From Dehalococcoidia bacterium (lineage in GTDB: Bacteria > Chloroflexota > Dehalococcoidia > Bin125), in contig CAXXSR010000002.1 of assembly GCA_963662615.2 (NCBI GenBank), positions 416,001 through 480,000 of the forward strand: 64,000 bases of DNA, written 5' to 3'. The notes beneath the pieces were generated by a model. That model saw only the letters and a program-made list of their open reading frames with translations, searched no databases and was not told the DNA's origin. The translations under genes were made by a program, and so were the position numbers. The first letter of the stretch is position 1. Every line of letters starts with the position of its first letter. Below, piece by piece: positions 22,080 to 24,703 of the stretch.

Positions 22080-22088
22080 AAGGCGGGC
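22080..22088 (+). repeat. Left copy of 9-bp target site duplication AAGGCGGGC (right copy 24688-24696)
   Basis: Identical 9-mers directly abut both inverted repeats. Confidence 0.93.
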
Positions 22089-22161
22089 GGTAGTGTCCTA
22101 GTTTGAGCCCGAGCCCGCCCGCCGAGACGTAATCCGGCCCTGAATGAAAAGTGCCAGACAG

Positions 22162-22983
22162 TCAGGCTGCCAGGCCCACCAAATCCGCCATCGTCCACTG
22201 CCGCGTTGTCACCCCCGCCGCGATCGCAGGCGTCGTCCGCAGCGTGCGATGGGGGCGGACGAAGTTGTACCACGCGAAGTGCAAGGCGACCGCCGCCTCC
22301 AAGTTCTCCCGCTTCTTGCTGAACGCATTGGTCAATCGGGTGAATCTGCGCTGCTGCATCCGCAGGGTGAGGTGGCTCCGCTCCACCAGCGACGTGGAGG
22401 TCCGGGCGAGATCGGAGTCGCCCACAATGATGTGCTTGTCCGCCGCCACCACGCGCCGGGGCGGGCTGTACCGCCCGCTACTTTGCTCCGACTCGTAGGA
22501 CTTTACGATGGTGGCGAAGTCCACCTGCCCGCCAAAGCTGGCTTCCACGGCGGTGACGTAGTGCGAGAGACCGTCCGCGCTCAACTGGATTCGGTTCGCC
22601 AGTCGCCAGGACAGATCGCGCATGAACCAATCCGCATCCCTGCGCGTGCGCTTGCCGACGTGGAAGGTCGGCACGATATTTGTCTCTGGGTCGAGCGCGA
22701 CCCAACACCAAGAATCGCCGGTTTCGAGGGGATCATCGTCGGGGCGGACCTGCGCCTCCTTCTTGCCGACATAGGTCCAAATCTCATCGACCTCGATGTG
22801 CTCACATTTCAAGTCACGCATGAGCACGTCCATGACCTCGCGGGAGGTCCGGCCTGCGCGCAGCATGAGCCGCGTGATCGTGTCCCGGTGGACGCCCGTC
22901 ATGCGCTCCACGGACCGGATCGACGTGCCCTCCACGAGCGCGCAGAGCACTGATTCTTGCTTTTCGGCCTTGAGTCGGTTCAT
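22162..22983 (-). CDS. IS1-family DDE transposase (single ORF)
   Basis: N-terminal HTH (SIRSVERMTGVHRDT), VDEIWTYVGKK, LSADG, VERSHLTLR...RFTRLT.AFSK. Confidence 0.9.
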   Translation of the reverse strand: MNRLKAEKQESVLCALVEGTSIRSVERMTGVHRDTITRLMLRAGRTSREVMDVLMRDLKCEHIEVDEIWTYVGKKEAQVRPDDDPLETGDSWCWVALDPETNIVPTFHVGKRTRRDADWFMRDLSWRLANRIQLSADGLSHYVTAVEASFGGQVDFATIVKSYESEQSSGRYSPPRRVVAADKHIIVGDSDLARTSTSLVERSHLTLRMQQRRFTRLTNAFSKKRENLEAAVALHFAWYNFVRPHRTLRTTPAIAAGVTTRQWTMADLVGLAA

Positions 22984-23003
22984 CAGCCGCCTGCTATCTT
23001 GAG

Positions 23004-23073
23004 TGGAGCGCCGGGGGATCGGACCCCGTGAAGCATGGATGTAAGGCCCAGCCCAGAGACCAACTCGCGCCCC
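23004..23073 (-). ncRNA. tRNA-like / tmRNA-TLD-like RNA with alanine identity acceptor stem
   Basis: GGGGCGC/GCGCTCC+A acceptor stem with G3.U70; T-arm CGGGG-TCCGATC-CCCCG; no encoded CCA. Confidence 0.65.
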
Positions 23074-23078
23074 ATGCA

Positions 23079-23112
23079 GAACGGCGACGCGCGGAGGGGC
23101 GCGTCGCCGTTC
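23079..23112. other. Perfect 14-bp hairpin between the fic stop and the tRNA-like element
   Basis: GAACGGCGACGCGC-N6-GCGCGTCGCCGTTC; no long U tract. Confidence 0.8.
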
Positions 23113-23115
23113 GTT

Positions 23116-24225
23116 CTACGTCGTTGCGGAAAGCTCTTTTTCCTCAAGTCCCGCTCCGATGACCTTCCGGAACTCGTCATCGATCGTGTACCTCGTATTC
23201 TTGCCCCGGCCTTTCCGCATCACGATGCCAGCCTCCACCATGTCTTTCAGATCGGAGAAGGCGACTGATTGCGATGCATTAGTCAGTCGGGCATAGGCGG
23301 ATGTCGAGAGCGGGCTCAGGTCAAGCATGAACATAGTTCCGAGCGCTTGTCGCGCGTTGAACGTGCCCTCCAAGTGCTCCACGAACGAGTCCTTCTCCCT
23401 GTTGAATCTGACGACTGCCCTCTCCAGCTGCGCCGATGCCATGCTCAGCATCGTTTGATGAAACTCAACGAATGGCGACGTATCCACCGCCTCGCTGAAA
23501 TTCTCACCCTGGGTATCTCTGAGCGTGTCGTAATACTTCTGCCGTTGATCCCAGATGCTCTGACTCACCGATAACAACCCATCCGCTGACCAGTCGGTGA
23601 GGGTCAAGATCGTGTCGGCCAGCAGACGAGCGGTCCGACCGTTGCCGTCCTCGAATGGGTGGATTGAAATCAGTCCAAAGTGTGCCATTGCTGCGACGAT
23701 GGGCGACGGATAGGTGCCTTCAGCCATCCACTGCTGGATGTCCGCCACAAACGCTTCCATCAGTTCGGGCACGAATGCGGGCGGGGGGGGCCGGTATCGT
23801 ATGTCGCGTGTCTGTGAATCAACGATCAGCGCCGGTCCGACGCGGTATCGCCCACGCCGCTGCGCCTGCTGGCCAGGAAGACCCTTGAGGATCAGCGAGT
23901 TCATCGTGCGGATCAGTCCTTGGTCGATCTTCACGGACTGATCGCCCACTAGCTGATCGACGAGTTCGTACGCCGCTTGCAGGTTCGTAATCTCTATCTC
24001 TTCCGGCTCCGACTCGTCCGCCCCCTCGACCAACACCAGCAGCGCTTGCTGTTCGCCAATCTGGTTCCCCTCAATGGCCGTGGAGGTATGGGCATTGATG
24101 TACCGCGCCTTCTGGCGGAAGTACGCCTCAAAGCCGGGTGGAACGAGCGTCCGGATGACGTACAATCGGTCGCGGAGGAAATCGACGTCCTGGCACTCGT
24201 CGTTGCAGGTCATTGTGAGTTTCAT
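23116..24225 (-). CDS. Fic family protein (class II) with C-terminal HTH
   Basis: HPFEDGNGRTAR catalytic motif, STAIEGN inhibitory motif, C-terminal wHTH-like segment; GGGAG SD before ATG 24225. Confidence 0.92.
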   Translation of the reverse strand: MKLTMTCNDECQDVDFLRDRLYVIRTLVPPGFEAYFRQKARYINAHTSTAIEGNQIGEQQALLVLVEGADESEPEEIEITNLQAAYELVDQLVGDQSVKIDQGLIRTMNSLILKGLPGQQAQRRGRYRVGPALIVDSQTRDIRYRPPPPAFVPELMEAFVADIQQWMAEGTYPSPIVAAMAHFGLISIHPFEDGNGRTARLLADTILTLTDWSADGLLSVSQSIWDQRQKYYDTLRDTQGENFSEAVDTSPFVEFHQTMLSMASAQLERAVVRFNREKDSFVEHLEGTFNARQALGTMFMLDLSPLSTSAYARLTNASQSVAFSDLKDMVEAGIVMRKGRGKNTRYTIDDEFRKVIGAGLEEKELSATT

Positions 24226-24342
24226 CGCCGTGCTCCCGTCTGAATATTCTCTCACGCAACCAGCATATACGTATATTCGTTCCCGTCAATGGTAAATGGA
24301 GGTTCTTAGCCGGAATATGCTGGTAATCGCCGGGCAGGCGGG

Positions 24343-24645
24343 ATGACTGAGACGAACACCGACGCCCTGCACCGCGCCATCCGCGACCTCCACGGCTGCG
24401 AGAGCCGCTGGGTAGAGGCCGTGCCAGTCACCGAGACGTTTGAGGGACAGACCGTCTGGGAAGGCGCTGTCCAGGTCTTTGACCTGATCGACCACCCCAC
24501 GGCCAAGCGCGCCTACGCCTGGTCCCATCCCACAGACGACGAATCGGGGCCGCGGCGCTACGTCGCCGTGCTCCATGAGGGGCCGGTGAACTCACCGCGC
24601 AAGGCGGTCCAAGCGGCGATTGTCCAAGAGCAGCGGGGGGGATAG
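24343..24645 (+). CDS. Small hypothetical passenger protein (100 aa)
   Basis: Protein-like ORF (VWEGAVQVFDL..HP.A.RAYAWS) divergent from fic, inside the TIRs. Confidence 0.75.
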   Translation: MTETNTDALHRAIRDLHGCESRWVEAVPVTETFEGQTVWEGAVQVFDLIDHPTAKRAYAWSHPTDDESGPRRYVAVLHEGPVNSPRKAVQAAIVQEQRGG

Positions 24646-24703
24646 CGATGGATTGCCCAAATTGCGCTGCCAAATTAGGACACTACCAAGGCGGGCGTCC
24701 TGA

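Follow-up and report, generated by a model that had tools for sequence, protein, structure and literature searches.

A putative alanine tRNA-like RNA inherited with cargo-carrying IS1-family elements

Insertion sequences are usually seen as a transposase between two repeats, and ISfinder lists an IS1 subgroup with a single open reading frame (ORF) that carries cargo. The window analyzed here is a 64,000-nt stretch of a Dehalococcoidia bacterium from the phylum Chloroflexota (GenBank assembly GCA_963662615.2, contig CAXXSR010000002.1, positions 416,001 to 480,000 of the forward strand; coordinates below count from its first letter). It contains an element that resembles the passenger-carrying IS1-family elements in its DDE_Tnp_IS1 transposase, in terminal repeats starting GGT and, together with its relatives, in target duplications of 8–9 bp and a size of 2.1–4.6 kb with cargo. 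Between its cargo and transposase genes lies a putative 70-nt RNA with the marks of alanine tRNA, which sequence comparison indicates is a real, inherited part of the IS1-family element.

Judging from the running text of their paper, the closest precedent is the irregular tRNAs of Mukai et al. (2017, NAR 45:2776, PMC5389517), non-canonical tRNAs from soil metagenomes and metatranscriptomes, some with G3:U70, UUA anticodons or tandem arrays and some close to a transposon-related ORF and to toxin–antitoxin genes. According to the authors' proposal, part of these tRNAs are charged but unused in translation (PMC5389517; review PMC7609411). As in their tandem arrays, second irregular tRNAs follow the RNA in four relatives of our locus (L121, L054, L065 and L153). 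Their allo-tRNAs, as that text describes them, have an 8/4 or 9/3 acceptor/T split with a long variable arm, whereas the family described here is 7/5 without one and falls outside the allo-tRNA class. The running text of PMC5389517 gives no IS1-family link, inverted repeats or target duplications; its Figure 4A and supplements may hold overlapping sequences. Our literature search returned no description of a tRNA-like RNA in IS1-family elements. The first-pass annotation of this DNA, which knew of none, stands as far as IS1 elements are concerned, and the G3:U70 and UUA tRNAs near toxin–antitoxin and transposon genes qualify it.

Bacterial tRNA-Ala shares with our RNA the 7/5 acceptor/T stack, G1-C72, G2-C71, G3.U70, A73, a T loop of the UUCRA type and the GG of the D loop. 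The compact, transposon-borne RNA differs in its 3–4-bp D arm, its central arm of ~9 bp, the absence of a variable loop, and a CYYUACA loop that has C37 and no alanine anticodon. The tRNA-like domain of transfer-messenger RNA (tmRNA, SsrA) likewise combines the alanine identity set with a reduced D region, a helix leaving the junction beside the T arm and no variable loop, and five compact relatives match positions 1–374 of its model RF00023, with the middle skipped, below threshold. In contrast to tmRNA, however, the whole RNA is 70 nt long, its central hairpin is capped, it has a mini D stem but no mRNA-like domain, pseudoknots or tag frame, and it has near-canonical tRNA relatives. The mascRNA of MALAT1 and viral 3′ tRNA-like structures are also tRNA-shaped modules within longer RNAs that are released or recognized by tRNA enzymes. 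They are eukaryotic or viral, and the resemblance is of shape only: on the mascRNA model RF01684, five relatives reach a sub-threshold 29.6–34.4 bits against 42.5, and the window copy 13.1 bits.

The RNA and its alanine marks

The RNA reads on the minus strand, with the following parts.

23004..23073, minus strand: tRNA-Ala-like RNA, 70 nt; acceptor stem 23073-23067/23011-23005, A73 at 23004
23066-23056, 23055-23029 and 23028-23012, minus strand: its mini D, central and T arms
23046-23040, minus strand: heptaloop CCUUACA of the central arm

The 7-bp acceptor stem (GGGGCGC/GCGCUCC) has G1-C72, G2-C71 and G3.U70, followed by A73, and so holds the full alanine identity set. A perfect 5-bp T arm (CGGGG/CCCCG, loop UCCGAUC) is stacked straight on it to give a 12-bp stack. 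Immediately after the acceptor stem comes a mini D arm that is common to the relatives, with a 3-bp stem (GAG/CUC) and the loop UUGGU. The central arm is bulged, about 9 bp long and capped by the heptaloop, whose closing pair is G.U. No CCA is encoded; CUC comes after A73. With C33 and C37 in its heptaloop and no variable loop, the window copy departs from the canonical cloverleaf. The RNA keeps the features that are read by RNase P, the CCA-adding enzyme and alanyl-tRNA synthetase (AlaRS), namely the 12-bp stack, the elbow loops, and G3.U70 with A73. On re-reading 23073..23004, the 70 nt given in the first-pass annotation matched exactly, as did its acceptor stem with G3.U70 and A73, its T arm with a near-standard loop, the missing CCA and the 20 nt (23003-22984) that separate the RNA from the transposase ATG at 22983. 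Its remark that there is no full D stem captures the reduced D region and overlooks the 3-bp stem.

We fetched 160 loci around relatives of the transposase, 80 from species genomes and 80 from metagenomes, and built a covariance model (R1) from six copies of the RNA. At E ≤ 1, R1 matched 9 times in 83 sources and 11 times in 80, upstream of related transposases. Across the 20 aligned R1 matches 98.2% of cells are paired, and 11 of the 14 pairs have changed on both sides. The covariation score is 0.614, compared with 0.138 for shuffled alignments (0 of 500 as high) and 0.08–0.13 for slid partners. G1-C72 and G2-C71 occur in all 20 matches and G3.U70 in 19, the exception being the weak match L119. 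Acceptor pairs 4–7 and the outer T stem turn over freely, while G1-G3, U70-C72 and A73 are fixed. Because these marks are fixed, charging, or binding by a reader of the same marks, appears to be under selection. The covariation check that had been proposed for the acceptor and T stems is thus positive, and the conserved tRNA mimic with an alanine identity set claimed at first pass is borne out in that the relatives covary while the set stays constant. A MAFFT alignment of 12 members put the 5′ ends in the wrong place and was kept out of the counts.

We also searched with a strict descriptor (GGG at 1–3, UCC-A at 70–73, four more acceptor pairs, five T-stem pairs and the T loop U.CRR..). Of the 160 loci, 20 from several phyla contain the RNA by this search, 19 of them on the transposase strand and upstream; absence of such a fold from related loci had been named at first pass as grounds for refutation. 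Five shuffles of 712,511 bases gave no match to it. A relaxed descriptor, in which no acceptor sequence is fixed, gave 22 matches in the 480 nt upstream of the transposase (149 loci), against 2 on the opposite strand and 1 in the first 480 nt of the ORF. GGG..UCC-A is present in 19 of these 22, and the other three are second, different tRNAs. The shuffle-negative strict descriptor and the strand bias of the relaxed one rule out a chance fold.

Within the window's own 2.66-Mb genome, the strict descriptor matches four sites, this one and three tRNA-Ala genes. Model R1 scores the element at 78.6 bits and, as its next best matches, tRNA-Ala(UGC) at 27.3, tRNA-Ala(GGC) at 26.9 and tRNA-Ala(CGC) at 18.0 bits; the host tmRNA was not matched by R1 in this search. 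Given this large gap, the RNA is alanine-tRNA-like but no copy of a host gene. A decayed host tRNA-Ala or ssrA, the other outcome that would have overturned the first-pass proposal, is ruled out on the same scores.

Standard tools pass over the window copy. ARAGORN at default settings reported no tRNA or tmRNA gene in the whole window, and none in tmRNA mode; with -ps80 it called a 71-nt ‘tRNA-Met(cat)’ at the same coordinates in a different register. An Rfam scan of 2 kb around the site had no match at E ≤ 10, RF00005 included, and a scan of only 101 nt gave insignificant matches to mascRNA (13.1 bits) and cyano_tmRNA (10.2 bits, E = 0.32). The window copy therefore stays below the thresholds of both the tRNA model RF00005 and the tmRNA model RF00023 and has no default ARAGORN call. 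The Rfam and ARAGORN check suggested at first pass is accordingly negative for this copy and positive for the relatives L070, L161 and L076, which exceed the Rfam tRNA threshold.

Descent and shape of the family

In a FastTree phylogeny of 158 transposases, presence of the RNA needs 11 changes, compared with a shuffled mean of 20.9 (0 of 500 as low), and the well-supported branches force at least 6. Because presence clusters on the tree, the RNA descends with the element, with losses or gains. It is kept where transposase identity is only 45–60%. For these counts, L119 (U.G at 3-70; E 0.15–0.25) was left out of membership, L117 (E 0.39–0.64; fails the T-loop descriptor) was a by-eye member in the tree only, and L145, with a copy 1.3 kb away from the transposase and in the other orientation, was scored ‘none’ in the tree.

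In the five other genomes that hold L030, L031, L032, L035 and L049 (~20 Mb in total), R1 finds one match each at E ≤ 0.01, beside the transposase, and the element was single-copy in every genome checked. In a sample of 151 genomes of the phylum, including the window's own, three have an R1 match. Of the two new ones, L207 lies ~90 nt upstream of a transposase with 44.5% identity, and the other is the G079 copy described below. Another genus of the same family (genome G004) has the block of small ORF, Fic gene, RNA and transposase at an unrelated place. There the transposase is in three pieces, and the RNA, 79% identical to the window's, is intact and followed by CCA. The neighboring genes of this copy (G004:C1:1871681-1874223, L028) and of the window's (22080-24696) are unrelated, yet both flanking direct repeats begin GCCCGCC, which could reflect a target preference or a common ancestral insertion followed by rearrangement.

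Our family table has 24 members, all with the 7/5 acceptor/T split and no long variable arm. Their T loops include UUCGA (12), UUCAA (6) and UCCGA (4). U at -1 and C at 74, both features of RNase P substrates, each occur in 14 of the 24, and 4 members encode CCA. All heptaloops fit C-(U/C)-(U/C)-U-(A/G)-C-A, with UUA, CUA and UUG at the anticodon position; position 37 is C in every member seen, and position 33 is C in the window copy and about a third of members.

One branch (L070, L076, L139, L161 and L169) has an ordinary cloverleaf of 73–74 nt, with U8, GG in the D arm and a variable loop of 5 nt. Of these five members, three exceed the Rfam tRNA threshold of 29 bits (L070 at 37.7, L161 at 32.0 and L076 at 29.9), and ARAGORN calls L070 and L161 tRNA-Stop(tta) by default and L121 likewise with -ps90. 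The window's branch and a third branch are compact (67–71 nt), with a mini D arm of 3–4 bp and an arm of ~9 bp, and lack nucleotides 8–9 and 26 and the variable loop. Five compact members match best to the two ends of the tmRNA model, at 25–31 bits against a cut-off of 47 (E 1e-6 to 7e-9). The tmRNA-like layout read into the window copy at first pass is therefore apt for these relatives; their scores are sub-threshold, the window copy itself is insignificant and has a mini D stem, and members of the 73-nt branch pass as tRNA.

Several neighbors of the RNA are of note. The second, different irregular tRNA begins 13–20 nt after it in L121 (1650-1723), L054 (547-621), L065 (2346-2420) and L153 (557-629), and these include a 74-nt ‘tRNA-Ser(GCU)’ without a long arm, one whose acceptor stem has 8 bp and one whose anticodon loop (UCCC) has 8 nt. 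The ~150 nt just before the RNA are conserved in L031 (2230-2380), L035 (2212-2362), L113 (1717-1867) and L110 (1255-1405), with two covarying 11-bp hairpins (CCC/GGG becomes UUU/AAA in L110) and with UGGCGAUU complementary to the loop of the first; Rfam had no match on this stretch. These four loci may encode a structured RNA of ~220 nt that has the tRNA-like RNA as its 3′ domain. The cargo part of L031 also holds, at 137-219, a c-di-GMP-I-GGC riboswitch (RF03167, 70.8 bits, above threshold) upstream of a 216-amino-acid (aa) ORF whose product looks secreted. Five tRNA genes surround the distant-branch IS1-family transposase of L167 (512-2091), one upstream, called tRNA-Ser(ACU) with its odd anticodon, and four downstream, these four being probably a host cluster.

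The carrier element

The transposon around the RNA is a complete IS1-family element of 2,599 bp (22089..24687) with 17-bp inverted repeats and a 9-bp target duplication, and has the terminal repeats and short direct duplication of an IS1-family transposable element. Its parts are listed from left end to right end.

24688..24696, minus strand: target-site duplication, left copy, GCCCGCCTT; the identical 9 nt lie outside both repeats
24671..24687, minus strand: left terminal inverted repeat, GGTAGTGTCCTAATTTG; agrees with the reverse complement of the right repeat at 16 of 17 positions
24343..24645, plus strand: conserved 100-aa gene, on the strand opposite to the transposase
24262..24289, minus strand: sigma-70-like promoter site TTGACG-16-TATGCT, assigned by consensus alone, just before the Fic gene
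23116..24255, minus strand: Fic/DOC-family cargo gene, 379 aa, with a C-terminal winged-helix-like tail (PF02661, E 3.1e-16)
23079..23112, minus strand: perfect 14-bp G+C hairpin between the Fic stop codon and the tRNA-like RNA; no U run
22984..23003, minus strand: 20-nt spacer, CTCAAGATAGCAGGCGGCTG; the motif CTCAAGATAGCAGG also comes after the RNA in L031
22162..22983, minus strand: IS1-family DDE transposase, 273 aa, intact (PF03400)
22089..22105, minus strand: right terminal inverted repeat, CAAACTAGGACACTACC; near-perfect inverse of the left
22080..22088, minus strand: target-site duplication, right copy, GCCCGCCTT

The transposase matches PF03400 (DDE_Tnp_IS1) at 25.6 bits against a cut-off of 24.1. 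Among 8000 candidates scored it has 7425 relatives at E ≤ 0.001, the closest of which are named IS1 family transposase by their sources. The IS1-family placement made at first pass is correct, with the RNA on the transposase strand inside the complete element. We located the terminal repeats by comparison with related loci; no second full copy, which would also have defined the ends, was found in the window's own genome. GGGGC at 23073 as a terminal repeat, with AAGATAGC as the target duplication, was tried and dropped, the true repeats and duplication lying 1.6 kb further out. The repeat motif together with 7–8 of 8 matching flank bases delimits elements of 2.1–4.6 kb in 50 of the 160 loci, and these sizes imply that all 50 carry cargo.

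A strong hairpin lies 3–20 nt upstream of the RNA in most relatives. The window's hairpin at 23079-23112 does not qualify as an intrinsic terminator, having no T run and no entry in the list from the terminator scan. The 100-aa gene is present in 51 of the 160 loci and, among complete elements, in 8 of 8 with the RNA versus 19 of 42 without it. Neither its product nor any of the 413 homologues has a Pfam match. An AlphaFold2 model of the protein (predicted local distance difference test score 91) consists of a helix, four strands and a helix, and of the 381 PDB matches that a fold search listed at E ≤ 10, none reached E ≤ 0.001.

On the other replicon of the same genome, a truncated second element (G000:C1:1649228-1650752) retains the 100-aa gene at 77% identity and, as its left inverted repeat, GGTAGTGTCCTAGTTTG; an IS3-like transposase ORF then cuts it short, and it holds no tRNA-like RNA or IS1 transposase. 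Antisense to the window's transposase (22793-22939, plus strand), an Rfam match to the Mcr7 small RNA reaches 21.2 bits where the cut-off is 380; as the sequence is G+C-rich, this is almost certainly a chance match.

Processing, charging and competing readings

The reading we favor, with about even confidence, is that the RNA is transposon-borne, processed by tRNA enzymes, recognizable by AlaRS and inherited alongside the transposase in IS1-family cargo elements. In the window, the promoter-like site at 24289-24262 would drive a transcript that runs through the Fic cargo gene and the hairpin at 23112-23079 into the RNA. A cut by RNase P at G1 (23073) would free its 5′ end, a 3′ nuclease and the CCA-adding enzyme would complete it after A73 (23004), and AlaRS would then recognize the finished RNA. 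Its excision would part the cargo message from the transposase message and leave the transposase mRNA with a processed leader of 20 nt, which would stop read-through from driving transposase synthesis. The selected product would be the released RNA, probably alanylated and acting in trans.

The first-pass annotation had placed the RNA in the leader of the transposase. This fits the window's branch, in which the gap between the RNA and the ATG is 20–69 nt; in the window itself, 20 nt is too short for a separate transposase promoter, and neither reading by eye nor the promoter scan found convincing hexamers in the spacer or the T arm. It does not fit the other branches, in which the gap is 126–366 nt and a promoter-like site can lie between. 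By eye in the alignment, L076, L139 and L169 have a possible promoter upstream of the RNA (TTGACA, 17 nt, an A/T-rich hexamer, ~10 nt before G1) that the promoter scan did not list. The family-wide function is that of an RNA gene, not of a leader.

Several observations weigh against the reading we favor. The promoter scan placed a sigma-70-like transposase site between the RNA and the ATG in L076, L169 and L065 (11 of 12 positions in L065), and because the site lies downstream of the RNA in these three loci, control of the transposase mRNA is not a function of the whole family. A copy scoring 56.9 bits (G079:C2:83184-83251, L206/L208) has no transposase within about 7 kb. The minimum free energy of the window RNA (-31.3 kcal/mol, z -1.23) was equalled in 19 of 200 shuffles and is ordinary for the composition. 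The covariation figures overstate independence on two counts, an alignment that had been fitted to the model and the kinship of the sequences; the relaxed-descriptor result escapes the first of these. In the window copy, C33 of the heptaloop and the change of U55 to C in the T loop depart from the tRNA norm, though TCCGA is present in 4 of 24 members, which makes U55C a recurrent variant rather than decay. G3.U70 is dispensable for RNase P and RNase Z, and the role proposed for the RNA as punctuation between messages therefore leaves its most conserved feature unexplained. Around the G079 copy we also observe that no 100-aa gene or clear inverted repeat lies within about 7 kb; the RNA there faces an 1110-aa ORF and follows a 282-aa ORF that by eye is like the ~270-aa cargo proteins of L031, L032 and L111.

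The near-canonical branch keeps alive a second reading, which we consider improbable, that the RNA is a working if odd nonsense suppressor, charged with alanine, reading UAA or UAG through a UUA or CUA anticodon and altering translation of the host or the element. G3:U70 allo-tRNAs, one of them with UUA, act as suppressors that insert alanine in Escherichia coli after an anticodon swap, according to the running text of PMC5389517. The tRNA-Stop(tta) calls, the three Rfam tRNA scores of members whose D arm is normal and which have U8, G18 G19 and a variable loop of 5 nt, and the UUA, CUA and UUG variants of the heptaloop are in keeping with such a role. Elongator tRNAs, however, carry a purine at position 37, and ordinary decoding is disfavored by the invariant pyrimidine there, by the common occurrence of C33 and by the compact geometry, which lacks the variable loop and nucleotides 8–9 and 26 and has an anticodon-side arm of ~9 bp. 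Moreover, the transposases translated for the tree contain no in-frame stop codon, and in many transposase genes the stop codon is a TAG within the right repeat, which such a tRNA would read through. We regard it as similarly doubtful that the RNA is a decoy or partner, a mimic of the tmRNA tRNA-like domain that binds SmpB, AlaRS, EF-Tu, a tRNA-directed toxin or the 100-aa protein and serves as an RNA antitoxin or slows ribosome rescue. The five compact members that match the tmRNA ends, the ACA or GCA kept in the loop, the cargo that is often toxin- or defence-like (Fic, PemK/MazF, P63C, Bro-N, HARE-HTH) and the 100-aa gene in every complete RNA-bearing element would suit this role. The tmRNA scores nevertheless stay well below the cut-off and the window copy is insignificant, the cargo varies between elements and offers no single toxin partner, and the 100-aa protein, whose fold matches nothing solved, also occurs without the RNA.

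An explanation purely in cis, in which the tRNA shape recruits RNase P and RNase Z to process or insulate read-through transcripts and the alanine marks are a relic of a tRNA-Ala ancestor, would account for the short distance to the ATG in the window's branch, the strong hairpin that precedes the RNA and the frequent U at -1. We think it unlikely: a relic would drift, whereas G1-G3 and U70-C72-A73 stay fixed while pairs 4–7 turn over, and in the other branches the transposase is farther away and has its own promoter-like site. Very improbable, finally, is the absence of a functional RNA, with the fold due to chance, to a decayed fragment of a host tRNA or ssrA, or to a DNA site for transposase binding or recombination. 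The weak free-energy z-score, the failure of default ARAGORN and Rfam to call the window copy and the single-copy state of the element in every genome checked could be taken in this sense. It is opposed by the silence of the strict descriptor in shuffles, the strand bias of 22 to 2, the compensatory changes, the large score gap to the host tRNA-Ala genes, the retention of the RNA at a transposase identity of only 45–60%, and a conserved G.U wobble that on the other strand is an A-C mismatch.

More speculatively, and in our view still unlikely, IS1-family cargo elements might carry their own alanine-charged translation RNA, either a weak suppressor of UAA and UAG or a minimal tmRNA-like module that enters ribosomes, and tune host translation or rescue for their own maintenance. 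If so, they would be the first insertion-sequence family with a dedicated tRNA-type gene in its core.

Most members of this RNA family are missed by tRNA finders and Rfam, so that such genes lie unannotated in genomes. The irregular tRNAs of soil metagenomes, as far as the published running text describes them, are here tied to a concrete vehicle with mapped ends. One family spans the range from a near-canonical tRNA(UUA) to a compact, tmRNA-like shape and may illustrate the evolution of tRNA mimics. Down to ~45% transposase identity and across several phyla, one branch of IS1 elements has retained a structured, alanine-marked tRNA-like RNA. This makes it a defined and testable example of mobile DNA that appears to exploit the maturation and charging machinery of tRNA.

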